A stretch of 64,000 bases of DNA from Deltaproteobacteria bacterium (GCA_020852715.1 JADZAE010000034.1:192965-256964); one strand, 5' to 3'; positions 6,583 to 59,464 are shown, counted from the stretch's first letter. Numbers and translations are program-made. The notes: generated by a model from the sequence alone, not told the origin.

Positions 6583-7428
6583 ATGAGCAGCGAAAACCAA
6601 AATTCAACGACAGCTAGCAACGCGGAACCTAAACCCGGACATCTATGGTATGTAGATGAATTTTTATTTTTAGCATACGGCCAGGAAGAAAATGCTCTAG
6701 CGGATAAGTCACTGGAGACCACACAGCGCTTCCGGCTGTTGGATTTTATTGTCTCCCCTGGCCATATTTGCGCAAAGATTCTGGAAAATAACAATAATAT
6801 ACATAAGGTTGAGATAGTAATTGCTGAATTTGATGAACAAGTTTGGCAAGACTTTTTCTTGCGCGCCGCCAAACATGCTTACGTCCTAGCAAAAATGCTT
6901 AGCGGAGATCTTTGCCCGGAGGTTAAAGGTATTTTTAGTGAAATGGATCTAAACCTGATTCCAATCAAGCAAGAACATATTCATTTTTTCTTAAATAATC
7001 AGCCAACTAACGCAGAGGACCCTTACATTTCAGCGTTAATTCAACGTTTCGTCAACCGCATGACCGAAGATCACTTTTCAATTTTCCTCTTGAGAGGCTG
7101 CGGGCACGAAGAGCTATTAGCGAAACTACGTAGCACCAGAAGACAACTTAAGCCAAACATTCAAGCAGAAGCAGCCATAATCAATAAGCTGGGGGCAACG
7201 ATAAATTCTGAGCCCTTACATCTGATAGCATTTAATAATTTTTGGTCAGCGGGGGAAGAATTAGAGAACTTAACTTTTTCAATAAAAGCCGATGAACTAC
7301 CCGCGGCCATTCTCAAATGGCTGGATCCTCTGCCGCTGGGTGGCTATGAAGAGCAGATAGAAAGGCAACTAGAAGAAAATTACGCTCAAGTTGCTACGAG
7401 GGCCCATGCTTTCGGCCTCGGGCTCTAA
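6583..7428 (+). CDS. Hypothetical protein translationally coupled to the SNF2 helicase
   Basis: ATG is 3 nt after the helicase stop (TAAACATGAGC). 281 aa with no recognisable motif. Confidence 0.5.
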   Translation: MSSENQNSTTASNAEPKPGHLWYVDEFLFLAYGQEENALADKSLETTQRFRLLDFIVSPGHICAKILENNNNIHKVEIVIAEFDEQVWQDFFLRAAKHAYVLAKMLSGDLCPEVKGIFSEMDLNLIPIKQEHIHFFLNNQPTNAEDPYISALIQRFVNRMTEDHFSIFLLRGCGHEELLAKLRSTRRQLKPNIQAEAAIINKLGATINSEPLHLIAFNNFWSAGEELENLTFSIKADELPAAILKWLDPLPLGGYEEQIERQLEENYAQVATRAHAFGLGL

Positions 7429-7454
7429 TTATACCGCACGCAAAAAGTAAGTTT

Positions 7455-7545
7455 GAAGCAAAGACCTGGAACGGTGCTTTCTGGGCAACACTATCCTTGT
7501 TGTGTACGGTATCAATAAGAACGCAGGAAGCGATTCACGCTGAGT
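7455..7545. repeat. Partial copy of the dispersed IS50-like repeat family (variant end plus subterminal segment)
   Basis: Contains cttgttgtgtacggtatcaataagaacgcag (variant of the reverse-orientation terminal repeat). tgaagcaaagacctggaacggt is the reverse complement of the segment near 33955. A gctgagttttat motif lies at about 7533. Confidence 0.4.
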
Positions 7546-7546
7546 T

Positions 7547-8557
7547 TTATTTAAACCGCGCCAGGAAACGCTTCCATTCGGCTTCGCTTGCAAAAATGAT
7601 ATGTAATCTCTTACGACCTTGATCATCGACCTGCAATTTGGCTCCTTCCAAATCAAGAATGCCTTTGATTTTCGACTCTAAGCGCACTAACTGCTCACGC
7701 AATTTCTTTTCATCATCGCTCAGCTCTTTTTTCTCTTGCTGTGCATATTCCAAAATAAGTTCCAAGTTACGCACGGATAACCCCGCGCTGACAGCCTTAT
7801 TCGCTAAACGCAGCTGTATTTTCTGATCATCTACCCCCAACAAAACTTTACCGTGGCCGGCGGTTAAATCCCCTTTTTCTATCATGACCACAATGTTGGG
7901 GTGAAGATTGAGAAGCCGCATACTGTTTGTTATAACAGCTCGACTTTTCCCTACTAATTCTGCCACATCTTTCTGCGTCAAAGAAAATGCTGCGATTAAA
8001 TTACTATATGCCCGCGCTTCTTCGATGGGATTTAAATTCTCTCTTTGTAAATTTTCAACCAGGGCTAACTGTGCAGCCTCGCTATCATCGCATTCAAGAA
8101 CCTGCGCAGGTATTTCGCGACAGCCGGCTAACTGTGCGGCACGCAGCCTACGCTCGCCGGCAATTAGTTCAAATCTATCGCTGTCTTTGGGTCTAATTAG
8201 AATTGGTTGCAACACGCCTTTTGCTTGAATAGAGGCAGCCAAAGCTTTAATTTCTTCCTCAGAAAAATGCTGGCGTGTTTGAAAAGGACTACTCTGTATT
8301 TTATCAACAGAGACGAGAGAGACGAAATCCATCGCTGCGACATTGCTTGGTTGCTGAGGAAAAGGTAAAATTTTCTGCTCCCCCGCCAATTTGTCTTCTT
8401 GTGGAGATAACACCGCTGTTGAGTCTTTTATCTCCACAGCAGTTTGATTCTTAGCCCAGCTGGGCTCTAAAATATTAGCGATCGCCCTACTAAAGTGGGC
8501 GCTGCGCGATCTTTCGATTACGGAGGTTGATTTGTTGGAATTGTTATTTTGCATCAT
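7547..8557 (-). CDS. parB: ParB/Spo0J chromosome partitioning protein
   Basis: ParB box ELIAGERRLRAAQLAG, an HTH (LTQKDVAELVGKSRAVITNSMRLL), GHGKVLL and a C-terminal dimerisation region. No adjacent parA. Confidence 0.8.
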   Translation of the reverse strand: MMQNNNSNKSTSVIERSRSAHFSRAIANILEPSWAKNQTAVEIKDSTAVLSPQEDKLAGEQKILPFPQQPSNVAAMDFVSLVSVDKIQSSPFQTRQHFSEEEIKALAASIQAKGVLQPILIRPKDSDRFELIAGERRLRAAQLAGCREIPAQVLECDDSEAAQLALVENLQRENLNPIEEARAYSNLIAAFSLTQKDVAELVGKSRAVITNSMRLLNLHPNIVVMIEKGDLTAGHGKVLLGVDDQKIQLRLANKAVSAGLSVRNLELILEYAQQEKKELSDDEKKLREQLVRLESKIKGILDLEGAKLQVDDQGRKRLHIIFASEAEWKRFLARFK

Positions 8558-12243: not shown

Positions 12244-12354
12244 ATGGCCACCATTGTAACTCTGGGTCTTATACCACTCCCAGGAAGTAAATTAACTTTT
12301 AAGCTGAAAAGCATAACCCTAAAAACGGCAGTAACCGTTTTATTAAACCTAAAA

Positions 12355-12425
12355 AACTCAGTCAATCTCTTTAGGTAGCCCCCCAGTAAAGCGCCGCTCG
12401 ACCTACTTCTTGTGTACGGTCTAAT
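12355..12425. repeat. Solo variant end of the dispersed IS50-like repeat family
   Basis: gacctacttcttgtgtacggtctaataagctctgc is related to the reverse-orientation terminal repeats at 33995-34022 and 7490-7520. A hairpin aaacggcagtaaccgttt lies nearby. Confidence 0.4.
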
Positions 12426-12551
12426 AAGCTCTGCTCTCTAATTGTTCATTATCTAAGGCTAGACATAATTGCAACTTTGTTGTCTATATGTTTTCGCCTA
12501 GGCAAAGATTGCAGATAACCTTTATGGCTTTTCTTAGATAAACCGAACGTC

Positions 12552-31096: not shown

Positions 31097-33394
31097 ATGA
31101 AAGAGGTGCGTGACATGAGTATCGGAAAAAAATATTTATTGACCTTAACTGCTTTTGTCTTGCTTACCGGCATGGCATCGGCAAGCGTCGAGGTTGCTAA
31201 TAAAGGCATCGCCAGCGATAGCCTCACCGTTTCCACAGATTTTGATGGTGACGGCAAGGGAGATCTCTTTGCTTACGATCCTTCCATTGGTAAATTTTAT
31301 GTTCGCCGCAGTAGTAATAAAACTGTTGGTAGTTTTATTTTAGGCGGAAAAGGTCTAACCCCGACATTGGGCGATTTTAATGGCGATGGTCGTGGGGATT
31401 TGGCTGTATTTAGCCGCACTTCGGGGAGATGGATAGTGCGTCTCACCGGCATTGCATCATACCGCCTTACTTTAGGGTCACGTGGCGATTATCCGGTTCC
31501 CGGTGACTATTTGGGATTAGGGTGCACTCAATTGGCGACTTATAACCTTAGACGAGGCCGTTGGACCATTGGCAGCTGCGTTAATCCCTCTAGCTCACTA
31601 CAAGTTAAAGCAGCCGCGCCGACAACTGTCACTTTCGGTGGCTCGGCTGGCGGATTGATGGCTGTTCCCTCTGACTATGACTGCGATGGTAGAACGGATC
31701 TCGCGGTTTTTAATCGTTATACCGCTCGCTGGACAATAAAAAAATCCTCGAACAGCGCGACTATATCTTTTAGATACGGGGCAATCGGAGACATGCCTGT
31801 TCCTGCTGATTATCGAGCACAGGGATGCACTCAGGCTGCGGTTTATAAACTTAATACTAACCGTTTTTACGTCTGCAAGGACTGCCGCAACGGAGTAACC
31901 GGCACATCTTATCGCAGCGTTCAGTGGGGATTGTTAGGGGATAGACCGGTATTAGCTAATCCCGATGGAACTCCCGGAGCGAATTACATAGTTTATCGCC
32001 CAAAAGAGCAGAGATTTTATAACTATAGATCGACTAATCCGATGATCATTAGCTCGGCAGCCACTGCCTTAAGCGGTATGCCTGCTAGTTTATTGCCCGT
32101 GTCCCCTCTGCATGTTCTTAATTCCTACCAAAAGGGAGACTATAACCGAGATGGGTTAAGCGATTTTGCCACCGCTGAAGGAAATGACAGTTCGGCGACC
32201 TGGAAAGTCCGCTACAGCATCGACCTAGCTAATCAGCGTAGTGCCATTGTCGCCGCTAAAGGCGATGCCTTGGTCCCTGCTGACTATGATGGTGATGGAG
32301 TAGTTCAGCCGGCCACGGTTACAGCGATTAGTGCTGATGTAATTCGTTGGCGCATTAAGAACCCTTCGGGAAGCGATACAGTTGTCGATTACGGGAAAAA
32401 CGGGGATAAGCCGCTGCCTGGAGATTTCGACTGCGACGGCAAAGCTGATTTGGCCGTTGTGCGCAAGAAAGACGGGATTTTCCTTTTCTGGTATATGCAG
32501 CTTTCTAGTGGCACGAACATCAACGATAAGCTTTTCGGCTTAAATGCTGATTTGCCATTTGTCGGTGATGTTGACGGGGATGGTTGCACAGAAATGGTTG
32601 TCGCTCGTCCGACAGGCACTACTGTTGAATGGTATTATAAGGATATCTACAACAGCACACATAAGATGCTTAGCTGGGGACTACCGACAGACACCGTATT
32701 ATCACCGATGGATATGAACGGAGATAACATCGATGACTTCATTGTCCAACGTGATGTGAACGGAGCTAATGTTGTTTATGTGCGTTATTCACGCTTAGAT
32801 AAGAATAGCTTAAGCTACCCGAACTTCCCTTGGAAGGCGATTAACTTCGGCTTAACAGGCGATGTCACAGCAGTCGGTAACTATGATGGCCCCGGACGTG
32901 CGGAAGTAGCAGTATATCGTCGCAGCACTCCGGCGTACTACTGGAATAAATATCGCTCGCAAACAGTTGTCGTCCCACACGGTGCAGCAACAGACAAAGT
33001 AATTAGACCTGACGGCACTGTTGTTTTACCAGGCGAGACGCCGGGCGGTGGTAGCAATCGTTGCGATGTGAACAAAAGCCCCTATGACGGTGCAAGCAAT
33101 GGTTTTACTTGGAAACCTCATGCCGAGGGAGGAGCTTACGGTGGTCATCCGACCGTCCTTATTCCTTCCGGTTATAGCAGCGTTCGCGAGTTAACATTGT
33201 TATCCTCAAGTGGCGAAGAATTACCTGGTCAACCAAAATTCCGTTACATCCGTCCGGAAGATGGTAGGCCAACGTTCGATAACCCAATGAGCGCAAGCGA
33301 TATGCAAGACTATGCACCGATAACCGTGCTCTTCAATTATGGTGGCAGTAATGTCTGCTACGAAATTGATGATCCGTCGGACCGCCACGACTAA
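31097..33394 (+). CDS. Secreted FG-GAP-like (integrin-alpha-type beta-propeller) repeat protein
   Basis: Signal peptide. About 11 repeats of GDFDGDGKGDLFAY / GDFNGDGRGDLAVF / SDYDCDGRTDLAVF type. Paralogous to the C-terminal parts of ORFs 22729-25572 and 25788-26873. Confidence 0.7.
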   Translation: MKEVRDMSIGKKYLLTLTAFVLLTGMASASVEVANKGIASDSLTVSTDFDGDGKGDLFAYDPSIGKFYVRRSSNKTVGSFILGGKGLTPTLGDFNGDGRGDLAVFSRTSGRWIVRLTGIASYRLTLGSRGDYPVPGDYLGLGCTQLATYNLRRGRWTIGSCVNPSSSLQVKAAAPTTVTFGGSAGGLMAVPSDYDCDGRTDLAVFNRYTARWTIKKSSNSATISFRYGAIGDMPVPADYRAQGCTQAAVYKLNTNRFYVCKDCRNGVTGTSYRSVQWGLLGDRPVLANPDGTPGANYIVYRPKEQRFYNYRSTNPMIISSAATALSGMPASLLPVSPLHVLNSYQKGDYNRDGLSDFATAEGNDSSATWKVRYSIDLANQRSAIVAAKGDALVPADYDGDGVVQPATVTAISADVIRWRIKNPSGSDTVVDYGKNGDKPLPGDFDCDGKADLAVVRKKDGIFLFWYMQLSSGTNINDKLFGLNADLPFVGDVDGDGCTEMVVARPTGTTVEWYYKDIYNSTHKMLSWGLPTDTVLSPMDMNGDNIDDFIVQRDVNGANVVYVRYSRLDKNSLSYPNFPWKAINFGLTGDVTAVGNYDGPGRAEVAVYRRSTPAYYWNKYRSQTVVVPHGAATDKVIRPDGTVVLPGETPGGGSNRCDVNKSPYDGASNGFTWKPHAEGGAYGGHPTVLIPSGYSSVRELTLLSSSGEELPGQPKFRYIRPEDGRPTFDNPMSASDMQDYAPITVLFNYGGSNVCYEIDDPSDRHD

Positions 33395-33402
33395 CAATCG
33401 AA

Positions 33403-33433
33403 GGCGGCTGGCGAAAGTCAGCCGCCTTTTTTT
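33403..33433 (+). terminator. Rho-independent terminator
   Basis: GGCGGCTG-gcgaaagt-CAGCCGCC followed by TTTTTTT, 9 nt after the FG-GAP gene stop. Confidence 0.75.
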
Positions 33434-33497
33434 ATTTCCACAAATCGACATAGAGCAAAAAAGAGATTCTGCGTATTTCTTCGTAGGGGCGACCGCC

Positions 33498-34022
33498 GCT
33501 GAGTCTTATACACAAGTCCATCAAATGCGTTACTTTATAGCAGCACGCGTAAGCGCCATTGGCTTATGGAAATGCCGCGTGCGTAATGGAACGCGCGGCA
33601 TGATCTGGAGGCTGCAGGCCGGAAGATCTGACGCGCCAGCGTTGGAAATGCCGGCGATGGTGTGCGGCGAAATGGATAAGCCTTCTCTCGGTAGAAAATT
33701 TAATTAAATAACGCTATTATAAAAATATTTGATTAGTCACTGCCGTTTCCTTATCGGAAACGGCTAAATATGTGAAGGCTTATTCTTCGCCTCCATGATT
33801 TTGCTACGCAAAATCCGCCCCGATGGGGCTTAGTTTCATTTTGCCCATAGATAAGCTATCCATGGCTTGTTTATTGGTATTTACGGAAGCGAATCGGGGT
33901 TACGCTTCCGCAAAAAGCATCCTTGCTTTTCTTTATACCGTACACAAAACTTAATTACTTAGTAATATACCGTTCAAGGTCTTTGCTTCAACTTACTTCT
34001 TGCGTACGGCATAAGACTCAGC
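33498..34022. mobile_element. MITE-like non-autonomous element with IS50/Tn5 outside-end-like terminal inverted repeats
   Basis: Left end GCTGAGTCTTATACACAAGT has 18/19 identity to my recollection of Tn5 OE CTGACTCTTATACACAAGT. Right end in inverse orientation is acttcttgcgtacggcataagactcagc. Interior has no intact ORF. It carries a remnant ...GATCTGGAGGCTGCAGGCCGGAAGATCTGA that translates to DLEAAGRKI*, resembling the Tn5 Tnp C-terminus DLMAQGIKI*. Confidence 0.55.
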
Positions 34023-34048
34023 AAAAGCTTCGGGCCTTCTCTTTATGA

Positions 34049-36409
34049 TCAGAACTCGTCGCTTTGTAAGTAATCGTTAGGAATTTTAACCTCAGGCGCA
34101 TCAGTGTTAGGCTCAGTCCCGGATTTAAAATATTCGACAAAAGCATCATCGGCATTCGAGGCCGTGCCCGAATTTAAATCGATACGCACAGGATTAACAC
34201 CCTCAGGGGGAACAAAATCCTGAGGTACATCATTAGCTAAAAACTTCTCCATAAAGTGTAAGAAAATAGGCGCAGAGACTCTACCGCCTGTTTCTTTATC
34301 GCCAATGGATTTTTTAGTATCGAAACCAACCCAAACCGCGCCCACCCACTCTGGCGTGTAACCGATAAACCAAGCGTCCATTTGCTCATTAGTTGTTCCG
34401 GTTTTCCCGGCGACGGGGTGGCCAAGCTTTTTCACGACAGTAGCTGTTCCCCGCTCAACCACACCTTTCATCATGTTGGCCATAATAAAAGCGGTATCAT
34501 CGGGAATAACTCGCACTTGCTTAGGTTGCTGCTCATAGACAACCTTGCCCTGACGATCGACGATTTTGCTGATGACTATTCTTTCCGCAAGCCAGCCACG
34601 CGCAGCAAAAACGCCGTAAGCACTAGCTAACTCTATGGGCTTCACTTCGGCAGTACCCAGCGAAATAGACATATCTCGACCAATTGGTGTGCTAATACCA
34701 AATTTACGCGCCAAAGAGATAATCCTATCTATTCCAATTCGCTGCAGTAAATGTACGGACACGACGTTACGCGATCTCTGCAGCGCTGTGCGTATCGTAA
34801 TTGGGCCTAAAAACTCGCGGTCATAATTTTGCGGCGACCAGAGTTCACCATTTCCCGCTGTGAGACTAATAGGAGAATCGGGAACCATAGTCGTCGGAGT
34901 GTAATTTAAGTATTCAACGGCCGCGGTATAAATAATCGGCTTAAAAGACGATCCCGGTTGGCGCAGAGCTTGCGTAGCACGATTAAAGTTACTGCGATCA
35001 AAACTGTACCCACCAACTACAACTTTAACCTGCCCGGTCAAAGGATCAAGTAAGATAAAAGCCCCTTCAATATCCGGCGTTTGATCAAGTTTGAGCTTAG
35101 CTTCCTGTTTAAGATCGCTAAACACTTGCGCCTTTTCCAGCTCAGAATCCAAAACTACATCTATCCAAGAATCAGGCTTAATGGTCCTAAGTAGATCGGA
35201 AGCAATGATGTGATCCTCCGGCGTTCGCAAGCGATTAGCCCATGTGGCTTTCTTCAAATTAACCACTCCCATAACTTCGCCAATGCGGACTCTGGCCATA
35301 GCTGTCTTGGCGTTTATTTCCAAAACTTTTGCCGGGTAAACCTCTTCGGCAAAGAGATGATCAGTGCGTTCCCACTTATCCTCTGAAAAATTGGAGTAAT
35401 GCTGTTCAGGAGTAAACGTTCCGCGCCAGCCGCGGCGTTTATCTAATTCTCTCAACCCCTTTCTTAACTCTAACTGAGCAATGTCATAAGCATCGACATT
35501 AGCTTCGGTATGAATAGTAAATCCTCCAGGGTTTCCGGCTGTCCAAGTAGGGTTCACTGATTTTAACCGCTCATCAAGCTCCTGGAGCACATACTGGGCA
35601 TAGTAAGGAGCCGCATAAATCGTTTGAAAATCTGGCGCCTGCGCTTCTACTTTTTCCGCTAGTGCTTTTTGCATTTGTTCATCGGTAATCATCTCGTTTT
35701 TACGCATCTGTTCTAGCACATAAACACGCCGTGCTTCGGAGTCCTTGCGATGACTTTTACTGGCTAAATAACTTGGCCGAGGTGGCAGTCCGGCTAGAAA
35801 AGCTATCTCTCCCAAAGATAGATCCTTCAATTCTTTGCGAAAATGCATCCAGGCAGCAGCTTTCACTCCATAAGCGTTAGCACCAAGGAAAATTTCATTA
35901 AGATAGATAGAAAATATTTCGTCTTTGCTTAGAGCATTTTCAATGCGATAAGAAAGGATTGCTTCCTTTAATTTGCGCTCATATGTCTTTTCTCTCGTTA
36001 AAAGTAGAGATTTAACAATCTGCTGCGTAATCGTAGACGCCCCTTGCTTACTTGCCTTGTTCCGAAAATTTTTATAGGCAGCGCGCATAATACTCATCAA
36101 ATCGATACCCGGATGCTTGTAGAAATTAGCATCTTCGGCCGCAAGAAATGCGTTTTTTACCGCTTGAGGAATTTCGTCGAATTTTACCGGCAGACGAAAA
36201 TCTTCCCAGGCTTTAGCAATTAAAGTTCCATCATCCGCTACTATACTGCTCACTGCTTTAGGCTGATAGTCGCTAACCTTCTCAATACGTGGCAGATCTC
36301 TGGTGATACGAATATAGAAATAGGCGACACCGAGCCCACCGAGAGCAACAACGATTAGCAAAAATATTGAGAAAATAATGAATCCGATCTTGGCAACTTT
36401 TCTAAGCAT
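34049..36409 (-). CDS. mrcA: Penicillin-binding protein 1A (bifunctional transglycosylase/transpeptidase)
   Basis: N-terminal TM. GT51 motifs EDANFYKHPGID, QGASTITQQIVK and RKLKEAIL. Transpeptidase SSFKP (SxxK). 786 aa. Confidence 0.9.
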   Translation of the reverse strand: MLRKVAKIGFIIFSIFLLIVVALGGLGVAYFYIRITRDLPRIEKVSDYQPKAVSSIVADDGTLIAKAWEDFRLPVKFDEIPQAVKNAFLAAEDANFYKHPGIDLMSIMRAAYKNFRNKASKQGASTITQQIVKSLLLTREKTYERKLKEAILSYRIENALSKDEIFSIYLNEIFLGANAYGVKAAAWMHFRKELKDLSLGEIAFLAGLPPRPSYLASKSHRKDSEARRVYVLEQMRKNEMITDEQMQKALAEKVEAQAPDFQTIYAAPYYAQYVLQELDERLKSVNPTWTAGNPGGFTIHTEANVDAYDIAQLELRKGLRELDKRRGWRGTFTPEQHYSNFSEDKWERTDHLFAEEVYPAKVLEINAKTAMARVRIGEVMGVVNLKKATWANRLRTPEDHIIASDLLRTIKPDSWIDVVLDSELEKAQVFSDLKQEAKLKLDQTPDIEGAFILLDPLTGQVKVVVGGYSFDRSNFNRATQALRQPGSSFKPIIYTAAVEYLNYTPTTMVPDSPISLTAGNGELWSPQNYDREFLGPITIRTALQRSRNVVSVHLLQRIGIDRIISLARKFGISTPIGRDMSISLGTAEVKPIELASAYGVFAARGWLAERIVISKIVDRQGKVVYEQQPKQVRVIPDDTAFIMANMMKGVVERGTATVVKKLGHPVAGKTGTTNEQMDAWFIGYTPEWVGAVWVGFDTKKSIGDKETGGRVSAPIFLHFMEKFLANDVPQDFVPPEGVNPVRIDLNSGTASNADDAFVEYFKSGTEPNTDAPEVKIPNDYLQSDEF

Positions 36410-43618: not shown

Positions 43619-43720
43619 TAAACCTTGTTGGCGAAGGCCGACGCTGAGTCTTATACACAAGTTCGTGAAATGTGTTACTTGAGAGGATTCCGACCCGCGA
43701 AGACCAACGATGAAATTTCC
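43619..43720. repeat. Solo IS50-OE-like end plus subterminal segment of the dispersed repeat family
   Basis: cgctgagtcttatacacaagttcgtgaaatgtgttact (TIR plus beginning of the conserved module). Followed by cgacccgcgaagaccaacgatg, which resembles cgacccccgaagtccaacaacg at 51463. Confidence 0.5.
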
Positions 43721-43738: not shown

Positions 43739-44833
43739 CTACCAGGCGTAGGAACCCGAACGATACTCCACCCTCGCCACCTCCCCCTTAGCCTTATCGG
43801 CGGGCAAAAAAGTAACACGCGTTGGCAAGCAGGGAATTTGCAAAGAAAGGGCCCATTGGCGCCAGAAGTTATTACGTTCTGAATATTTTACGGCGGGATC
43901 ATCAATGCCCATATCGAAGTTACTGGGAAGTGCGTACGGAATAACTAAAGTCTTAGCGCCGCGGACTTTACTAACTTGGGAATAGTCAGTGGGATTATAC
44001 CAAGTGGCCTCATATTTTTTAAGATGTGGTCCCCAAGTGGCTAAAGGACGCATTTCTATTTTTGACTCACGACAAATATTCAGAGTTTTCATTTCAGGAT
44101 AGCCATCGGTATTGAGTTGAAAAATAGATTCGCTTTGTTGTTGTTCGGCCAGCGCCTCGTCCGCAGTGGTCTCCGGAGTAGTATCTCCTTGGTTAGAATA
44201 ATAAGAGCGCATAGTCATTAACGTAAGCACGTTTATTAATTGCGTCTTTTCCTCTGTGGGCTTTTCGTTCTCATCGTCATAATAGTAATCAGTGTCGGCT
44301 TGGTAATCTTCAAAAGTATAATCGCGAAAAGCCTCATCCTGCTCGGGGCTAGAACCGGTATTAGTCGTATCAAATAACGGCGTTACATTCTTCTGCTGAA
44401 TAAGAGGAGCGGCGGAGCTTGATGAGCAACCCATAGCCGTCATGCAAAATTTGTTTTTCTTTTTTGGCAGGACTTCTAACAAAGCAGTTTGTATGTCTTT
44501 TACCGGAATAGAAAGTAGGTCTTCAGGATCACAGCGCATAAAAGGAATGGGTTTGGTAAAATCTAGTTTTTCCGAGCAATTTATCGGCTTAACATCCTCA
44601 AGATCAGCGCTGATCTCATCAAGATTTAGTTCGCTTTCGTCTTTATTGGTATCTTCGCTAGCATAAGGAGAAGCTCCCGGTTTTTGTGCCTCGCTGCCAG
44701 GTTTCGAAAATAAATAATCACTGCGCACATTGTTAGTGTTTTGGGCAAAAGAAATAGGTAATGCAACACACAGCAGCAGGATGAGGACAACAATTGCATG
44801 ACTCTTTAACAATTTTGATAATTGACTATCCAT
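43739..44833 (-). CDS. Secreted acidic low-complexity protein with conserved C-terminal domain (paralogue A)
   Basis: Signal peptide. Asp/Glu/Pro/Thr-rich middle. C-terminal about 100 aa (...WYNPTDYSQVSKV...IPCLPTRVTFLPAD...) is similar to the C-terminus of ORF 47439-48512 (...YYDASDYKQVQKA...VECLPTSVEFVQAE...). Confidence 0.5.
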   Translation of the reverse strand: MDSQLSKLLKSHAIVVLILLLCVALPISFAQNTNNVRSDYLFSKPGSEAQKPGASPYASEDTNKDESELNLDEISADLEDVKPINCSEKLDFTKPIPFMRCDPEDLLSIPVKDIQTALLEVLPKKKNKFCMTAMGCSSSSAAPLIQQKNVTPLFDTTNTGSSPEQDEAFRDYTFEDYQADTDYYYDDENEKPTEEKTQLINVLTLMTMRSYYSNQGDTTPETTADEALAEQQQSESIFQLNTDGYPEMKTLNICRESKIEMRPLATWGPHLKKYEATWYNPTDYSQVSKVRGAKTLVIPYALPSNFDMGIDDPAVKYSERNNFWRQWALSLQIPCLPTRVTFLPADKAKGEVARVEYRSGSYAW

Positions 44834-44851
44834 GACATTTTTGTGGTCTAA

Positions 44852-47422
44852 TTATTGCCAACCACCTGTATTACCACCAGCATTGCCACCGCCATCTAAT
44901 CCGCCAATACTTCCCCAATTAATCATAGGTTGCCCGCCCTGCTGCTGAATAACCATATTCAGCATATCCATAAGCGGGTCATTTGGATTCTTCTTTTTAC
45001 TTGGTTGGCGGGGGGGGTTACTGTTTTTACCGCAACCGCGATCAGAACCAACAGGGCCCCAAATCGCTTCGCATTTTGCGCGATTTGCCCGGTTCACGGT
45101 TCCAACAAATGGATAAATTTGATAGGCCGAACAGGCATAAGGGAAATCTGCCGGAAAGCCTTTTCTTACAGTCCCATAAAGCTTATCTTTGGTGGGGAAC
45201 TCATCTCCTTGATCACGCCAAGGGTTAGAGCCAAAGGCATTATAGGCTTGGCAACCCCAACCTTTCTTTTTAATAGGCAGATTATCTTCGATAATTGAGC
45301 GATACTGACAAGAGCAGGCTGTTCTTCTATTCCAGAACATCAAGCGTACAGAACCCAAATGCCATGACTGCATCAGATCGGCAGGAAATTCCGCATGATT
45401 TTGCTCCCAGACCCAGGGGACATCTATACCTGAATCTTGAGATTCAGAAGATGAACTACTGGAACTGAAGCCGGAAGAAAGCTGATTATACATATAAGGT
45501 GTCGAGCTGGCGCTAGACGAACTTTGGCTACTAGACTCAAAGGTTACATCTTTGGACTTCATTTCCCCTTTGTCGCTAGGATTCATGCGAAAGCAACGAC
45601 TCACTTTAGGGTAAACCAACTGCAGTTTATCAATATACATTTTCCTAGCCGAGGGATCTTTGCCAAAAAAATCAGTAAATAGCGGTAAGCCTACATGCGG
45701 CACATAAGGAATATTATGTCGCGGCCAGTTATATTGTGTCGGATATTTCTCACGCATTTCTTGCACAAGTTCTAAAAAACGGCGCGCAGCTACAGTCGCT
45801 GAGGTTAACGGATGATGGAAACCACAAACTGTATTGGTTGGCGTCCAAAGAATAGAGCCGTGATAATAACAAAACTCACAATCCCCCTTATCCACCTTTC
45901 CCTGCCCAAATAATCCCGCTAGTGGCGATTGGGGAATGGCATTATTAAACAGCTCTTCACCGCCAACTTTACCCGAGATGTTGCCAAACAATGGATCAGG
46001 AACACCGGCCATATTAGACCAAATTTCGTGGCGACATTTTAGGCATTTATTGATCATCGGTAAAGCTGCTGCTGTTCCACCAAAATACTTTCCCTGAGCA
46101 GCCATCATTTCCTGGGTAGTGACTTCAAATTTAAAATCGCCCATTCCGGGGATACCGGAAAAGTCAGGATGCTCGCCGCGCTTATATTTGTCCTTATTTA
46201 CAAACTGCGTCATGATAGGCTGGCGCCAGAAACGAGCATATTCCGGATATTCTTCTGACCAAGCAACGGGACGAAACTTCTTTTCTAAGTCACCATTTTT
46301 AACCGGTTTATCGGGGAGCGAATCAAGAAAGCAAGGGATATTATTTTTCCAGATATAACCGTTCCACCAATAAGGCCGACTGCAGCAACCTTTACGACAT
46401 CTATAAAACCAGCAACCGTCGGCACCATGACCCGCTCGGCTTTTAGGCCAAGTATAATTAGAGGCTGTGACCTTAGGACGGTAAATATGCGCTTCGAAAG
46501 TCTGGCACTGATCAAGTGGGCTTATACCTCCGGTATGTGTTTGGCCTTTGCCTAATTTCGCCAACGGCCCTTGATAAACATCTTCAATATTCGAAGATTT
46601 ACCTTCCATATCCAAGGCACGGTTAGTTTCAGTTACATTCTTTTCATATTCCGGATAAAAGCTCGAGTCTTTACGTTTGATCAAAGACTTAGTGGATAAA
46701 TCAGGTCGATTAAAAAGCTCTATTGGTTCGGGGTTCACTGCGCTGACACCAAAGTTATTGACGTCGATTTCCCATTCCGGCCACCAATACTCCCAGATCT
46801 CTCCGGGGTTACGACGCGGCATACAGTCGTTAAATGGGTAAACGATTTTCGGCTGACAATATTCACAGTTTTGTCTTTTTAAACGTGGCTCAAAGCATTC
46901 ATGAAACATTTGCCAACCGGCACGACTGGCTTCTCTTGCCGGCGCCGCTTTAGGATTATACTGAAGGTTTGGGTTGGCTAATAATTCTTTCTGGGTTGGC
47001 TTTTTGGGTGCCTCAATATCTTTGGCTACTCCGGCAGGACCTAGAATAGCAACGGTAGAATCAGCTGACCAGTCACCTCCTGAGTATTTGATGTCGCGCC
47101 CATCGCGCCACGGATGTTCTTCAAAAGAACGCTCTTCGATGTTGCTTTTTATGTGTTTGGCCAACTCGCTGGCATCATATTGATAGCTAGGTTCCATCGC
47201 TCTACCCACAGCCTCTTTAACGCGCTGATGCATTATCGGATTATCAATAATCGCACCCGGGTTGTTAATCGTAGCACCTGGGATTGCGCCCCCGGTTGGT
47301 GCAGCTGTAGGCCCGGGATTGTTGATCGTCGGATCACCGCCAACCGTATTATCCATCCACTGTGCCCTAGCCTGACCATAACCTAGTAAAACAAATAAAA
47401 TTGCCACAATTAATTTCTTCAT
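44852..47422 (-). CDS. Large secreted Cys/Trp/Pro-rich protein of unknown function
   Basis: Signal peptide. 856 aa with about 30 Cys in clusters (CEYCQPK, CWFYRCRKGCCSRPYWWNGYIWKNNIPC, CLKCRHEIW, CEFCYYHG). Very high Trp/Tyr content. A Ser-rich tract. A C-terminal Gly/Asn-rich tail. Confidence 0.55.
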   Translation of the reverse strand: MKKLIVAILFVLLGYGQARAQWMDNTVGGDPTINNPGPTAAPTGGAIPGATINNPGAIIDNPIMHQRVKEAVGRAMEPSYQYDASELAKHIKSNIEERSFEEHPWRDGRDIKYSGGDWSADSTVAILGPAGVAKDIEAPKKPTQKELLANPNLQYNPKAAPAREASRAGWQMFHECFEPRLKRQNCEYCQPKIVYPFNDCMPRRNPGEIWEYWWPEWEIDVNNFGVSAVNPEPIELFNRPDLSTKSLIKRKDSSFYPEYEKNVTETNRALDMEGKSSNIEDVYQGPLAKLGKGQTHTGGISPLDQCQTFEAHIYRPKVTASNYTWPKSRAGHGADGCWFYRCRKGCCSRPYWWNGYIWKNNIPCFLDSLPDKPVKNGDLEKKFRPVAWSEEYPEYARFWRQPIMTQFVNKDKYKRGEHPDFSGIPGMGDFKFEVTTQEMMAAQGKYFGGTAAALPMINKCLKCRHEIWSNMAGVPDPLFGNISGKVGGEELFNNAIPQSPLAGLFGQGKVDKGDCEFCYYHGSILWTPTNTVCGFHHPLTSATVAARRFLELVQEMREKYPTQYNWPRHNIPYVPHVGLPLFTDFFGKDPSARKMYIDKLQLVYPKVSRCFRMNPSDKGEMKSKDVTFESSSQSSSSASSTPYMYNQLSSGFSSSSSSSESQDSGIDVPWVWEQNHAEFPADLMQSWHLGSVRLMFWNRRTACSCQYRSIIEDNLPIKKKGWGCQAYNAFGSNPWRDQGDEFPTKDKLYGTVRKGFPADFPYACSAYQIYPFVGTVNRANRAKCEAIWGPVGSDRGCGKNSNPPRQPSKKKNPNDPLMDMLNMVIQQQGGQPMINWGSIGGLDGGGNAGGNTGGWQ

Positions 47423-47438
47423 TGTGTAGTCCTTTTAT

Positions 47439-48512
47439 TCACTCCCAAACCTTAGCCCCGGTGCGTGTCTCTAAATAATTACCATCTTCAGCCTGCACAA
47501 ACTCCACACTAGTTGGTAAGCATTCAACGCCGGAAATCACTGCAAACTCCGACCAAAAATCGTAGTTATTAGGGTTAGCATAGTCATAATCCACAGCCTT
47601 AGGATTATAGGCCACCACATGTTTCTTGGAATTTTTTGCCTTTTGCACCTGTTTATAATCGCTAGCATCGTAATAAACGGAGTTATAAAGCTGCACGCCT
47701 AAAGACAGACTGCCTAGAGGATCTCGCTTAACTGTCGAAGCAGCACATGGCGGTAAAGAATAATCCGGCTCATACTTGGGCGTTTTCTCCGTGTTTTCGT
47801 CTTCCTTGCTATCGCTATCTTCGTCCTCGTCATCATCTTCTTCAGTCTGCTCTAACCAGCCGCGCGAAGCAGTGGCCGTAGGCGCTTGCACTGGTTGTCT
47901 AACAGTTGTAGTTGTCGCTGATGGCTGTCTTGTTAAGTTACTCCAATCATTCGCGCCTTTCTTATTGCCACCATCATCAGCCACTGCTGGTGGCGTTTTT
48001 TCTGTATTTTGCGTGCCTTGATTAGCATTCCCCCAAAGACGATTATCTGATCTGGGTTCAGTTTTTACCGCCGGCTGCGTAGTTACGTTGTCGCGTGGAG
48101 CAAATACATCTCTGCCGGGCAATGGCTGCATTGCTGGTCTTTGCGGCTGAGTGACTACCGGTGGCGGAGTTTGTTTATCGTTCTCTGCTGCTGGAGCATT
48201 GTTATTCATAAGGTTATCAAGATAATTTCTCATATCGCCGGGAAGGGGCTTAGCTGTCGGGACAGTATTTACAGTCGGAGCCGGCGGAGCAATAGGCAAA
48301 GCTCTGCTTGGAGCTTGTTGCGCTGCGCGATTGGCATTTTTAATGATATCATCAACAGAAGAAGACGGTTTAGAAGGTTGAGTTCTTGGTGACGGTTCAG
48401 GACCGAATGCAGACTCTCCATAAGCCGTGAAATTAACAGCCAGCAAAGCTAGTGATGCTACCGTCAATAAAAGAAGCAGATAGGAAAATTTAACTCGACC
48501 GTTCATCAACAA
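47439..48512 (-). CDS. Secreted Pro/Thr/acidic low-complexity protein with conserved C-terminal domain (paralogue B)
   Basis: Signal peptide. Pro/Thr/Gln-rich region and a DDDEDEDSDSKEDE acidic block. The C-terminal domain is shared with ORF 43739-44833. Confidence 0.5.
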   Translation of the reverse strand: MLMNGRVKFSYLLLLLTVASLALLAVNFTAYGESAFGPEPSPRTQPSKPSSSVDDIIKNANRAAQQAPSRALPIAPPAPTVNTVPTAKPLPGDMRNYLDNLMNNNAPAAENDKQTPPPVVTQPQRPAMQPLPGRDVFAPRDNVTTQPAVKTEPRSDNRLWGNANQGTQNTEKTPPAVADDGGNKKGANDWSNLTRQPSATTTTVRQPVQAPTATASRGWLEQTEEDDDEDEDSDSKEDENTEKTPKYEPDYSLPPCAASTVKRDPLGSLSLGVQLYNSVYYDASDYKQVQKAKNSKKHVVAYNPKAVDYDYANPNNYDFWSEFAVISGVECLPTSVEFVQAEDGNYLETRTGAKVWE

Positions 48513-48777
48513 AATTTTTGCACAACCCGTTAATTAGATCTAACAACAAACAACCGAAAGGACCCTCAATGATATTGTGATAACATTAAGAAATAATTGT
48601 GCATTTATTATTTTATCAGCAATAAACTACCCATATGCCCAAGATGAAAAACAACCAGCACTAAATTACCCCACACATACTCACTCTTTTGCTCTAACAC
48701 CCACAATCTGAAAAGCATTATTTATCTTTTTATTGCTTAAACCTTTATAACCCCCTTGCCAGACAAAGAAAACTTCA

Positions 48778-48819
48778 CTTTTCCCTAGCACCCCCCACCT
48801 TTTCCCTAGCACCCCCCAC
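48778..48819. repeat. Tandem direct repeat 2 x 21 bp (cttttccctagcaccccccac)
   Basis: Exact duplication read directly, in the AT-rich region upstream of minus-strand gene 47439-48512. Confidence 0.8.
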
Positions 48820-48950
48820 TATTTTTTTCTGATGCCCATAATGTTCTTAGGGAACTGCGCAAAATCGAAAAATATGGCTCCAATAAAATACTAAGCTCTT
48901 ATAGCGAAAGGGTTTTTATTGGTTTTGATTGGTGCCCTGCACCAGCGAAA

Positions 48951-51002
48951 TCATGGAAATAGATAGGGGATTAACTCCTTACCGCTGAGTCCAGCACCGA
49001 AATATAGGGGCTTTTCAGGATAGAGCTGATTGTAATGCGTTTGCTTTGCTTCATAGGTGCTGATGCGCTCTTGCTTAAGAATTTCGCTCCACTGGGCTAC
49101 TTCCTTAAGATAATTAAGATTAATGCTTGCCCGCGATTGAAAATCTAGGTCATTCGATACTGCCCAAAACTGAGAGGCTAGGTGCAGGGCCAAAATAACA
49201 GTAAGGCATTTTCTAGCTAAGGCGTTTTTTAACTTAGCATCTGAGATAATATAGTAAGCAAAGATGCAGATCCCAACAAAAGCTAAGTGCTGATAACGTA
49301 ACGATAAAGATTGCTGATAACAGTAAATCCAGCGCCCTATAGCCGGTAGCAGCAGAGAAATAATAAGCCAAGCCTGAGATATTAGATATACGCCTATAAC
49401 GCTGCGGTTATTCTTTTTGGTTTTAAAAGTCAGCCCCATGGCCAGCAAAGACACAAGCAGACCACAAAGAGCAAGCGTGATTTCCGGAAAATATCGGATA
49501 AAGGGCACTGCATTTAAAAGTTCATTCGGCGCATAAAGCGATAAAAACGGAAAAAGCCCCAAGCCACGTAAAATAGTTCCTAATTGTGAACCAATAAAAA
49601 GATAAGCCAAAAAACGCCGAACTATTTTTCCCGTACTAAATTCGCTGGCCATAGTAGCTTGCGCGCTTGGCGCCTGCAGGACCTCGGTAAACATATAAAG
49701 CACCAACACAAGCACAGCAGCAAGCATAGAAATTATTCCCAGCCTAAGCACGGCGCGGCGATTAAAATGACCGTTAATCGCCAACTCCAAAATGCAAACT
49801 AGCCCCACTAAAGCAAAGGCGGCTAAGCCATTGCCAAAGGACAAACAAGCAAGTAAAAGAAGAATATTTGCCTTAATTAAGGCCAGAGATTTATTTTCGC
49901 GAAGATACTGCAAGCCAAAACAAAAGCCCCAGAGCACAAAAACCTGCATCAACAACAAGCATTGAACAAAAGGCCATTGCAGCACTTCAGCTTGCAAACA
50001 GCTTATGGCAAAGAACAACAAAAGCATGCGCCGAGTAATAGTATTACTATTTTTGTAAAACAACGCGGCCAGAAATTTATCCAATGATAAAACGCTAAGC
50101 ATAAACAAAAGATAAGTCACGAGCGAATAACCTAAATACCAACTACCGAATACCTTAAGCTGAATAAAATATAAGGCAAAGAAAAGCGGAATAAAATGCT
50201 CATTATGACTTTGAAAAATCATACGCCACCCTTCGTCCACGCTCTTTATCAAAATATTCCATTCATCAGCATAAAAAGACAAAGGCATCTTAAAATGAAC
50301 CAAGGCACTTAGCGCCAGCACAAGCAAGGCAAAATTAGCAGTTTTTGTTAAATACGGCCCACATTTAAGAATAAACAAAGCAAGCGCAGCACCCAATAAA
50401 ACACAAATAACCAGGCGGCCACCTTTGAGCGGCTGAACCCAAGCGTCACCAGCTGCGGCACGAAAGAAATTCAAGCGCCGCTTAACTGTCAGCTGTTGAA
50501 AAACAGCACTGGCAGCGCTCACCTGTATATAAACATCTTTACCAATATGCTCAGGGGAAACAGTAAACTGAAAAGGTATAAAATACTTTTTCTGTTCTTC
50601 ATTTACTATCGATAAGGGAACAATAAATTGCGCAATTTGCTCGCCGTCTTTGCTCTTTACTTGCAGCTTAAAATCGGCACGACTTTTGTAAACAAATTCT
50701 ATGATGTTTCGAGTCAATTTGAAGCTCGACGAGCGACAAAATTCTTGTGCAATAATCGCATCGCCTTGAAAATAGCATTCCCTACGCTCCGGCCTAGCGC
50801 CCTGTTCCCAATTAAGACCAATGAAAGAATCATAATCAGCCGTCGGATAAACAAGTAGCAAACGATAAAAAATCACCGCCGCCAGAAACAGTAAAAGCCA
50901 GGTAATTTTCTTAATAGTTGGTGACACCGGGTTCCTTAAATTTTCACAATTTAACCCAGGCGGTCGTATAGCAGTATGGCTAATAAAAGCCAAAGCCTGC
51001 AA
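48951..51002 (-). CDS. Polytopic membrane protein (about 14 TM) with N-terminal extracytoplasmic domain. Possibly a GT-C-type glycosyltransferase.
   Basis: 683 aa. One N-terminal TM, a soluble domain of about 150 aa, then many TM helices. FYADEW acidic motif in an early loop. No family assignment possible by eye. Confidence 0.5.
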   Translation of the reverse strand: MQALAFISHTAIRPPGLNCENLRNPVSPTIKKITWLLLFLAAVIFYRLLLVYPTADYDSFIGLNWEQGARPERRECYFQGDAIIAQEFCRSSSFKLTRNIIEFVYKSRADFKLQVKSKDGEQIAQFIVPLSIVNEEQKKYFIPFQFTVSPEHIGKDVYIQVSAASAVFQQLTVKRRLNFFRAAAGDAWVQPLKGGRLVICVLLGAALALFILKCGPYLTKTANFALLVLALSALVHFKMPLSFYADEWNILIKSVDEGWRMIFQSHNEHFIPLFFALYFIQLKVFGSWYLGYSLVTYLLFMLSVLSLDKFLAALFYKNSNTITRRMLLLFFAISCLQAEVLQWPFVQCLLLMQVFVLWGFCFGLQYLRENKSLALIKANILLLLACLSFGNGLAAFALVGLVCILELAINGHFNRRAVLRLGIISMLAAVLVLVLYMFTEVLQAPSAQATMASEFSTGKIVRRFLAYLFIGSQLGTILRGLGLFPFLSLYAPNELLNAVPFIRYFPEITLALCGLLVSLLAMGLTFKTKKNNRSVIGVYLISQAWLIISLLLPAIGRWIYCYQQSLSLRYQHLAFVGICIFAYYIISDAKLKNALARKCLTVILALHLASQFWAVSNDLDFQSRASINLNYLKEVAQWSEILKQERISTYEAKQTHYNQLYPEKPLYFGAGLSGKELIPYLFP

Positions 51003-51077
51003 TCTTTTCCATGGGAATTCCCTCTTATTTTAGCAATCGTCTGGTTTGAACAATATTGCATTGTTTAGGTAGGGGCA

Positions 51078-51434
51078 GCGCTGAGTCTTATACAAGAGTC
51101 GTAAAAACGTGCCTTCGTGATTAATTTTTGCAACACCCTCGGCCATGCCGCCACGGGGGTAGATAATTTTGCAACCGCTTGTGGAACGCGACCCATCTTT
51201 GGAAGCGAAGCGAACAAAGTGGGTCGCCTGCGCCCAATAGTTACACGGCATTTGGCGGCTTAGCCACATACCGCAGCTGGCATTTCCAGCCTCGGCGCCT
51301 CAGATCTTCCGGCCTACAGCCTCCAGATCATGCCGCGCGTTCCATAGCGCACGCGGCTTTTCCATGAGCCGATGGCGCTTACGCGTGCTGCTCCAGAGTA
51401 ACGCATTTGATGGACTTGTGTATAAGACTCAGCA
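51078..51434. mobile_element. MITE-like element of the same family, flanked by inverted IS50-OE-like repeats
   Basis: Left gcgctgagtcttatacaagagtc (forward). Right acttgtgtataagactcagc (reverse complement of GCTGAGTCTTATACACAAGT). Interior 51245-51414 is the reverse complement of 33518-33690 at about 90% identity, including the Tnp C-terminal remnant. Confidence 0.55.
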
Positions 51435-51634
51435 GCAATCGGAAGCCCAGTAGCGGCTCTCGACCCCCGAAGTCCAACAACGTATCCACCCAAAATTCCA
51501 TAATACAGGCGGCTACGATTTTGGGCCGAATACGAGGAAGACGAGTGGCGAGCACCGCAAGTGTAGTAAACTACTCGCGGAGCGCAGCCACGAAGTCTGA
51601 CAAAGTAGTCGGCCAAAAGCGTAACCGCCTGCCC

Positions 51635-58583: not shown

Positions 58584-59309
58584 ATGATTTATAAAATTAA
58601 AAACAAAATCACTAAAATGCTAAGCGACTTTTATCTAGGTCTTTTTGGCTACCCTTCTGCCGATTTTAGCGTTGACTACAATAAATATGGGCTTAAAAAA
58701 TTTCCGCAAGATCCCCACAATATCTCGGTATTCCGGAAAAAACGCGCCGAGCTGGTTAATAGCTTAATCAGCCCTAACTCCACTGTGCTCGACCTAGGTT
58801 GCGGCGACGGAGCAATCTTAATTTACATTGATGATCATAATCTCATCGACGGCACAGGAGTTGATATCACGGAGCAGAGCAAGGTAGCGCTTGGCGACCA
58901 TGACTTAAAATTCATCAAAGCCGACATCAGCGACCTAAAAAATACAACGCTGATCCCCGCAGCAGATCATGTTTTATTATTAGAACTAATCGAGCACTTC
59001 TCTAATCCCGAAGCACTACTTAGTGCCTACTTAGCCAAGGCAAATAAGGGTGTAATCTTCTCTGTTCCTAACACAGGCTTTGTGCTTCATCGCCTGCGCC
59101 TCTTGTTCGGCCGCTTTCCTCTGCAATGGCAGCTCTACCCCGGGGAGCACTTAAGATTCTGGACAATTAAAGACATGCACTGGTGGCTTAAAAAGCAAGG
59201 CTTTCAAAATGCCCAATGTCATTACTATCGCGGCGTGCCTGTATTAAATAACCTTTGGCCTAATCTTTTTGCCGCCGGCATCATAGTTCAGATCCCTAGC
59301 GAAAAATAA
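58584..59309 (+). CDS. MetW-like SAM-dependent methyltransferase
   Basis: VLDLGCGDGAIL and a C-terminal FSVPNTGFVLHRLRLLFGRFP...LRFWTIKDMHWWL that resembles the MetW C-terminal region. Confidence 0.65.
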   Translation: MIYKIKNKITKMLSDFYLGLFGYPSADFSVDYNKYGLKKFPQDPHNISVFRKKRAELVNSLISPNSTVLDLGCGDGAILIYIDDHNLIDGTGVDITEQSKVALGDHDLKFIKADISDLKNTTLIPAADHVLLLELIEHFSNPEALLSAYLAKANKGVIFSVPNTGFVLHRLRLLFGRFPLQWQLYPGEHLRFWTIKDMHWWLKKQGFQNAQCHYYRGVPVLNNLWPNLFAAGIIVQIPSEK

Positions 59310-59315
59310 ATTTAT

Positions 59316-59356
59316 AGCCATACTTTAGATTTACAATATAAATCTAAAGTATGGCT
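59316..59356 (-). terminator. Strong hairpin (18-bp perfect stem, 5-nt loop) between convergent genes. Likely intrinsic terminator for the minus-strand giant gene.
   Basis: AGCCATACTTTAGATTTA-caata-TAAATCTAAAGTATGGCT. On the minus strand it is followed by a T-rich run (reverse complement of aaaaataaatttata). Confidence 0.65.
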
Positions 59357-59464
59357 AATGATTGTCATTATAAAATCAAATGCTTACCACTAATTCATTA
59401 AGTTTTACCGGGACGATTACATATCTATATTGGATGTGATCAAAACAAGAAGGATTAGTGAATC

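Follow-up and report, generated by a model that had tools for sequence, protein, structure and literature searches.

An intergenic stretch of 525 bp (33498-34022) in the genome of an uncultured bacterium begins with a sequence that resembles the outside end of Tn5/IS50 and closes with an imperfect inverse of that sequence, and it had been described in an earlier note on this DNA as one MITE-like element. We asked whether these 525 bp represent a single mobile element and how its ends relate to those of IS50. All coordinates refer to the window, i.e. the whole 64-kb stretch of DNA that was analyzed.

The locus and its Tn5/IS50-type end

The window has a GC content of 44.1%, and its source is a Bdellovibrionota-like MAG. 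The flagged 525 bp are located inside a 654-bp gap in which an FG-GAP-repeat gene (31097-33394, plus strand) and a PBP1A gene (34049-36409, minus strand) converge. The product of the latter is 100% identical to the NCBI protein MCC6932525.1, which comes from a MAG labelled 'Deltaproteobacteria bacterium'; its next-best matches are an ENA protein at 81% and then proteins at 57% or less, some of which are labelled Bdellovibrionales, Bdellovibrionota, or Oligoflexia. In the relative with the 81% PBP1A, synteny ends at PBP1A with a scaffold gap downstream, which makes an empty-site comparison uninformative, and no copy of the end was found in the sequence of this relative. Another convergent gap of the window, between the ORF at 58584-59309 and a 1507-aa ORF (59465-63988), holds a 43-nt near-perfect palindrome (59315-59357, 93%) that is probably a bidirectional terminator. 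The 1507-aa ORF itself contains internal DNA repeats (60378-60573 and 61395-61617, 77% over ~220 nt) and a tandem pair of ~173 nt at 73% (63018-63364), and these internal repeats point to a repeat-domain protein.

Both terminal sequences of the 525 bp, GCTGAGTCTTATACACAAGT at 33498-33517 and acttcttgcgtacggcataagactcagc at 33995-34022, are present where the earlier note had placed them, as are the two hairpins that it quoted. The sequence used here for the first 208 nt of IS50 is 100% identical to natural plasmid copies, the neighbours of which are aph(3')-IIa and a gene annotated as 'IS4-like element IS50R family transposase'. This identity gives CTGACTCTTATACACAAGT as the outside end. The left end of the 525 bp, CTGAGTCTTATACACAAGT, agrees with it at 18 of 19 positions, the sole difference being C to G at position 5, and the match proposed earlier thus holds against real IS50 copies. 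The same 19-mer occurs exactly at 33499 (plus), 43644 (plus), and 51432 (minus) and with two mismatches at 51081 (plus), and no match was seen in 100 dinucleotide shuffles of the window. These four ends, which we assign to family A, accordingly match the IS50 outside end at 18/19 (three ends) or 16/19 (51081). An extra G precedes CTGAG at all four of them, as well as at the right end of the 525 bp (the right end of element B1 below), whereas IS50 begins at C. The TTATACACA core, which is DnaA-box-like, is intact in three of the family-A ends.

Elements of the IS50 subgroup have the end consensus CW------Y---CA-A--W- and generate direct repeats of 8-9 bp (De Palmenaer et al. 2008, PMC2266710). 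The family-A end agrees with every conserved position of this consensus. Full-length IS50-like elements that we used as references have transposases 44-58% identical to Tn5 Tnp and left ends that match the outside end at 15-17 of 19 positions: those on an ENA contig and in Vibrio sp. SS-MA-C1-2 read CTGACTCTTCTACACAAAT (17/19), with the two Vibrio copies flanked by clean 9-bp duplications (tttagagac and ccctagggc), and that of Endozoicomonas sp. 4G reads CTGTCTCTTAGTCACAAAT (15/19). Because left ends are conserved across IS50-like elements, such ends are diagnostic of a Tn5-type transposase. The fit of the family-A end would thus put its cognate transposase in the IS50 subgroup, a placement distinct from recent descent from IS50 itself. 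We also noted that in the ENA contig and Vibrio elements (Tnp 55-58% identical to that of Tn5) the right end equals the IS50 inside end at 19/19 positions, GATC sites included; as judged from these sequences, the IS50 inside end is far more conserved than the transposase protein. Further, Endozoicomonas sp. 4G (CP082909.1) carries two IS50-like copies with swapped 9-bp flanks, the left flank of each being equal to the right flank of the other, which indicates a ~53-kb inversion by recombination between the copies.

The motif also resembles the Tn5 end that is used in library preparation, and it might therefore be suspected to be a Tn5/Nextera tagmentation adaptor. The Nextera mosaic end, which we take to be CTGTCTCTTATACACATCT, matches at 15/19 positions, compared with 18/19 for the natural outside end; further, the copies are diverged, share 150-330 bp of non-adaptor interior, are intergenic, and lie internal to a 258-kb contig. 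We regard an adaptor origin as so improbable as to be negligible, and the same evidence speaks against the assembly artefact that the earlier note had allowed for.

Make-up of the 525 bp and the two families of elements

Self-comparison of the window and searches for the two kinds of end resolved the flagged segment and its relatives into the following features.

33400-33437, plus strand: intrinsic terminator, the true 3' end of the FG-GAP-repeat gene; outside the elements.
33498-33671, plus strand: A1, truncated family-A element, with the 20-nt terminal repeat GCTGAGTCTTATACACAAGT at 33498-33517 and then 154 nt of interior.
33672-33921, no strand assigned: spacer, AT-rich and unique intergenic DNA, with small hairpins at 33753-33775, 33817-33829, and 33875-33919.
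33922-34022, no strand assigned: B1, family-B mini-element of ~101 bp, with a well preserved right repeat at 33976-34022 (reverse complement GCTGAGTCTTATGCCGTACGCAAGAAGTAAGT).
43643-43689, plus strand: A3, solo family-A end, in which ~28 nt of subterminal homology adjoin an exact 20-nt repeat (self-BLAST fragment 43638-43685).
51080-51433, minus strand: A2, complete family-A element of 354 bp, with 20-nt inverted repeats GCTGAGTCTTATACAAGAGT and GCTGAGTCTTATACACAAGT that match each other at 18/20 positions.
7421-7524, minus strand: B2, family-B mini-element with the core TTATACCG(Y)AC(R)CAA at both of its ends, where the outer 8 nt are decayed.
12259-12434, plus strand: B3, family-B element of ~170 bp with a different interior and the ends CTCTGGGTCTTATACCACTCCCAGGAAGTAAATT and, as reverse complement, GCAGAGCTTATTAGACCGTACACAAGAAGTAGGT.

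Family A thus has four ends at three loci in the window, where 0 are expected. The self-BLAST alignment of A1 with A2 (33490-33671 versus 51441-51260, minus) runs over 182 nt without gaps at 87% identity, the minus strand of A2 being collinear with A1. Homology of A1 to the family may fade by ~33700, and neither a right end nor a partner for a target site duplication was found for this copy, the 8- and 9-mers of its left flank having no partner up to 34120. The GC content of the family is 55-56% (55.7% in A1), i.e. 11 points above that of the genome, and A2 folds more stably than its shuffles (z = -4.8). The 8-mer AGCAATCG follows the right end of A2 directly (51434-51441). A second, perfectly matching occurrence at 51032-51039 is separated from the left repeat, on its outer side, by 40 nt; when one boundary was kept flush, such an 8-mer was seen in 0.27% of 3000 controls. 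This offset duplication is suggestive, and we treat it as an anomalous candidate, which possibly originated either from transposition with a pseudo-end, in which donor flank was taken along, or from a later 40-bp insertion. The 40 nt concerned (within 51032-51079) start with CTG, lie in the upstream region of the ORF at 48951-51002, and are not repeated elsewhere in the window. Both A1 (33482-33489) and the left end of A2 (51069-51076) are preceded by the 8-mer GTAGGGGC, at a distance of 5-8 nt from the terminal repeat; we considered it as a shared flank and dismissed it, as it was not significant in a flank shuffle test. Between A3 and A2 lie four consecutive large minus-strand ORFs (364, 856, 357, and 683 aa; 43739-51002), none of which has a Pfam match.

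Family B has six ends at three loci in the window, as found by a core search and nhmmer. With 2 mismatches or fewer allowed, the core TTATACCGTACACAA matched the window five times, compared with 0.11 expected, and this search exposed B3. The end can be written as (GCTGAGTC)TTATAC-CGTAC-ACAAGAAGT, and in comparison with the A/Tn5 end all six contain the same insertion of 5 bp (TTATAC-CGTAC-ACAA), so that they fit the outside end only if this insertion is allowed for. The presence of the insertion in both repeats of each copy implies that it was a property of the ends of the parent element; that each end acquired it by a separate mutation would not be plausible. The outer bases are decayed in five of the six ends; GCTGAGTC is fully preserved at 34015-34022 alone and almost so at 12261-12269.

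Among the family-B copies, B1 and B2 are alignable (33917-34014 versus 7531-7429, 73% over 104 nt). The left repeat of B1 is degenerate (33922-33956, CTTGCTTTTCTTTATACCGTACACAAAAC), and nhmmer finds both ends of this element (the inner one at 33924-33956, E = 2.5e-4). Its flanks, AAAAGCATC (33913-33921) and AAAAGCTTC (34023-34031), are flush and agree at 8/9 positions, which narrowly exceeds the 95th percentile of the random controls, and their length of 9 bp is that made by IS50-type transposases. The flanking direct repeat extends to 24 nt (18/24; 33913-33936 versus 34023-34046), and we observed a second degenerate left-end-like stretch, GGGCCTTCTCTTTAT, after the right-hand duplication and just before the PBP1A stop codon; the 24-nt repeat and this stretch could represent a partial tandem or a re-insertion event. 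No direct repeats were found flanking B2 or B3. One end of B2 supplies or overlaps the stop codon of the ORF at 6583-7428. At 15 nt from B2, the sequence GCTGAGTTTTAT (7539-7550) differs at one position from the 12-nt terminus and overlaps the stop of the ORF at 7547-8557 (minus strand). Possibly it represents a further remnant of a solo end, although ~0.38 such matches are expected by chance per window.

Considering these features together, the 525 bp could still be viewed as one composite MITE, with a single transposase acting on the two outermost GCTGAGTCTTAT ends. In keeping with this, the extremities form a perfect inverted repeat of 12 bp, both ends are of the IS50 type, and the fold of the whole segment is far above shuffles (z = -7.0). 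However, perfect inverted repeats of 12 bp within 1 kb number 24 in the window, compared with 1-12 in shuffles, and the repeat of the 525-bp unit alone is therefore unremarkable. Of the imperfect inverse that the earlier note described at the right end, only these 12 bp are shared perfectly with the left end; the remainder aligns only with the 5-bp insertion, which is common to the six family-B ends and marks the right end as belonging to family B. Further, no 8-9-bp duplication is found around the 525 bp, including the 9-bp target site duplication that had been proposed as a check, and the left flank has no downstream partner, whereas B1 has an inner end and an 8/9 flanking repeat to itself. 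The middle 250 bp are unique and low in GC: the spacer has no significant match elsewhere in the window, contains one terminator-like site (33817-33829), and is set off by a step in GC content from 55.7% in A1 to 39.6% (33672-33916), followed by 37.7% in B1. Finally, A and B are each found alone elsewhere, A2, B2, and B3 each being solitary with both of their own ends. We thus hold a single 525-bp element to be very unlikely. What the earlier note took for one element consists of a truncated A arm, ~250 bp of spacer, and an independent B mini-element with its own two ends, and the best reading, in our view, is that a truncated A copy and a complete B copy would have come to lie on either side of this spacer in a convergent gap by chance or because the juxtaposition was tolerated.

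Overall, we consider it probable that the window contains two families of small, non-coding, non-autonomous MITEs with IS50-subgroup ends and that the 525 bp are a juxtaposed A relic, spacer, and B element. MITE-like, non-coding, repeated elements with terminal inverted repeats of the Tn5 outside-end type are real, and the additional copies on which the earlier note made its claim depend do exist. The note identified the end correctly, and usefully so, but overstated the boundaries of the element and its unusualness.

Coding capacity, host function, and copies beyond the window

The elements are 100-354 bp in size and have neither a transposase gene nor a coding signal. The absence of an intact ORF from the 525 bp, as claimed before, is right in substance, with the qualification that NCBI annotates a 60-aa hypothetical ORF (IT292_04630, 33525-33707) over A1. 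Two more annotated ORFs overlie family-A copies, namely IT292_04685 (51314-51616) over A2 and IT292_09530, which is located on a different 42-kb contig of the MAG. A HMMER search with the open A1 frame against 1.84 billion representative proteins returned these three ORFs as the relevant matches, all from this MAG, and two weak ones to unrelated repetitive proteins. The alignment of IT292_09530 with the A2 frame spans 83 codons, is free of gaps, and shows 59% amino acid identity; this ORF thus represents a fourth, more diverged copy of family A. The 24 mismatches between A1 and A2 (182-nt alignment, 8 flank bases included) are distributed over the codon positions as 8/6/10, i.e. without bias, and 17 of them are transitions; A2 has stop codons in the NCBI-annotated A1 frame, and no Pfam domain was found in any tested frame of the elements. 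The three 'hypothetical proteins' are most likely spurious ORFs in MITE copies.

A tblastn search of the 64 kb with Tn5 Tnp and three relatives found no transposase in the window. An LQS..DG likeness to the C terminus of Tn5 Tnp was considered as a transposase remnant and rejected, as neither Pfam (E<=10) nor tblastn supported it. These results bear on the possibility that no short element was ever amplified and that each copy is instead what separate internal deletions left, in place, of a full-length IS50-like insertion sequence. The IS50-type ends would be expected in this case, and the truncated copy and the solo end show that deletions do occur. However, A1, A2, and the IT292_09530 copy share a collinear non-coding interior of 174-249 nt without indels, and the transposase gene of IS50-like elements starts ~90 nt from the left end, so that separate deletions would not give the same interior; in addition, no transposase remnant was detected (Pfam, tblastn). 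Decay in place is therefore extremely unlikely, and we favor amplification of elements that were already short.

Alternatively, the repeats could have been exapted or could be chiefly host-functional, e.g. by giving rise to a structured small RNA or by serving as terminator modules or as binding sites for a protein. In favor of this, folding is significantly better than in shuffles for both A2 and the 525-bp region, the DnaA-box-like TTATACACA of the Tn5 outside end is intact at its core in three A ends, four of the six loci are at gene 3' ends with three of them in convergent gaps, and the QMITEs of Coxiella yield sRNAs (PMC5896051). Against this, fold stability above shuffles is expected for anything with inverted repeats; Rfam returned nothing, either for the whole window at the gathering threshold or for both A loci at E<=1, the sole sub-threshold match being L20_leader at 21 bits (cut-off 58.7), which is due to chance; no promoter excess over shuffles was found; the copies are truncated at different points; and they are too few for a covariation test. 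The structured RNA that the earlier note had suspected in the interior is thus without support, and a chiefly host-related role is, to our mind, quite unlikely. Convergent gaps are places where insertions are tolerated.

We found no A or B copies outside this MAG in the searches made. When 185,579 species genomes were scanned for the exact 19-mer, a single match emerged, in the Psychromonas MAG contig JBFGZH010000160.1, and the corresponding scan of metagenomes gave one match only, a chance occurrence inside a coding sequence. Viral contigs scanned with C or G at position 5 yielded nothing, BLASTN of A2 against plasmids yielded no match, and a homology search for ORF-called element copies with a six-frame chimeric protein query yielded nothing. 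The Psychromonas match is a mini-element of ~115 bp (4170-4290) with the ends CTGAGTCTTATACACAAGT and CTGACTCTTATACGCATCT, and a further outside-end-like end, CCGACTCTTATACACAAGT, is located at 6086-6104 of this MAG sequence, near the contig end; together they imply that Tn5-type MITE relics are found in marine Gammaproteobacteria too.

Origin of the elements and comparison with known systems

We propose that each family would descend from an insertion sequence of the IS50 subgroup (IS4 family). A Tn5-like DDE transposase acting in trans would bind two ~19-bp ends and form a synaptic complex, excision would follow the cut-and-paste pathway with hairpin intermediates that is established in the case of Tn5, and insertion would produce an 8-9-bp duplication; family B would have been served by a related enzyme tolerating ends that are 5 bp longer. 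The repeat families, the identity of the ends, and the lack of both a coding signal and a transposase in the window are direct results, whereas the parent insertion sequences, the mobilization in trans, and the present inactivity are all inferred from sequence. A1 and A2 differ by ~12%, and the fourth copy differs by more. This divergence, together with the facts that A1 is truncated, that A3 consists of a solo end, and that outer bases have decayed in most family-B ends, indicates that the copies are most likely immobile relics. They are probably old and inactive now, and their present effects would be passive: larger 3' intergenic regions, hairpins, overlap with stop codons, and spurious 'hypothetical protein' calls. 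We note that the target site duplications are unclean, that of A2 being offset by 40 nt, that of B1 extending to 24 nt, and those of B2 and B3 being absent, and this counts against our reading, as do the extra G before CTGAG, the lack of a cognate full-length insertion sequence or transposase among the sequences covered, and the lack of this lineage among the named relatives of Tn5 Tnp in the best 120 matches; further, with three loci per family in the window, the consensus sequences and boundaries are provisional.

A more far-reaching possibility is that an IS50-like transposon entered this Bdellovibrionota-like, possibly predatory lineage horizontally, gave rise to at least two end variants, and burst into an abundant lineage-specific MITE superfamily. 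If so, the GC content of 55% of family A, equal to that of IS50 and 11 points above the host, would be a fossil of the transfer, the 5-bp longer end would imply a transposase with altered end spacing, and the offset duplication of A2 would reflect the use of a pseudo-end carrying 40 nt of donor flank. The density of MITEs in the window is about one locus per 10 kb. The IS50-like genera met in our comparison (Aeromonas, Shewanella, Vibrio, Moritella, Endozoicomonas, and Psychromonas) are Gammaproteobacteria, and the named relatives of Tn5 Tnp among the best 120 matches are likewise all Gammaproteobacteria, with none from this lineage. We consider this scenario unlikely and return to the more modest one of two MITE families with IS50-subgroup ends. 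Its implications are that unusually long 3' intergenic gaps are explained by MITE copies, that IS50-type ends extend to a Bdellovibrionota-like lineage, and that the end exists in two natural variants, one with the C5G change and the extra G and one with the 5-bp insertion.

In comparison with IS50/Tn5, the elements share the 18/19 outside end, the fit to the subgroup consensus, and the conserved TTATACACA core, their candidate duplications of 8-9 bp would agree in length with those of the subgroup, and they differ in having no transposase gene, no end of the inside-end type, G at position 5, and an extra G before the end. They are also smaller (100-354 bp versus 1350-1550 bp in the IS50 subgroup), and their host, a Bdellovibrionota-like MAG, stands in contrast to the Gammaproteobacteria from which all named relatives of Tn5 Tnp in the best 120 matches come. 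Tn5/IS50 itself can be dismissed as their identity, given an end that matches at 18/19 only, the lack of an inside end and of a transposase, and the lack of interior similarity beyond 20 nt. The Psychromonas mini-element has the same 19-mer, CTGAGTCTTATACACAAGT, and spans ~115 bp to CTGACTCTTATACGCATCT, but it shows no interior similarity to A or B and its host is gammaproteobacterial. Titles and abstracts retrieved for MITE together with IS50, from a literature source of incomplete coverage, contained none on an IS50-derived MITE family.

Among described MITEs, QMITE1 and QMITE2 of Coxiella burnetii are similar in being small (100-400 bp), non-coding, multicopy, diverged, and truncated, in having terminal inverted repeats, and in their location in intergenic regions or at gene 3' ends with stop-codon overlap and spurious small ORFs. 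QMITE1 is flanked by direct repeats of 2-4 bp (Wachter et al. 2018, PMC5896051). The GC content and MITE-like appearance had led us to suspect QMITE1 here, and we rejected it since the frames are unlike the published DUF1658 alignment and the host belongs to a different phylum. There is no sequence relationship to the QMITEs, and, in contrast to them, the parent insertion-sequence family can here be named from the ends.

A further parallel is found in the Bacillus cereus group, the mobile insertion cassettes and MITEs of which that derive from IS231 are non-autonomous, have IS4-family ends, and are presumed to be mobilized in trans. The IS231 subgroup has CAT... ends and 10-12-bp duplications. 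The elements described here are, like these derivatives, non-autonomous with IS4-family ends but belong to another IS4 subgroup and are found in another host phylum. MITEs derived from known insertion-sequence families are common, and we see no new mechanism at work; on the best reading, the two families are ordinary relics of transposon activity.
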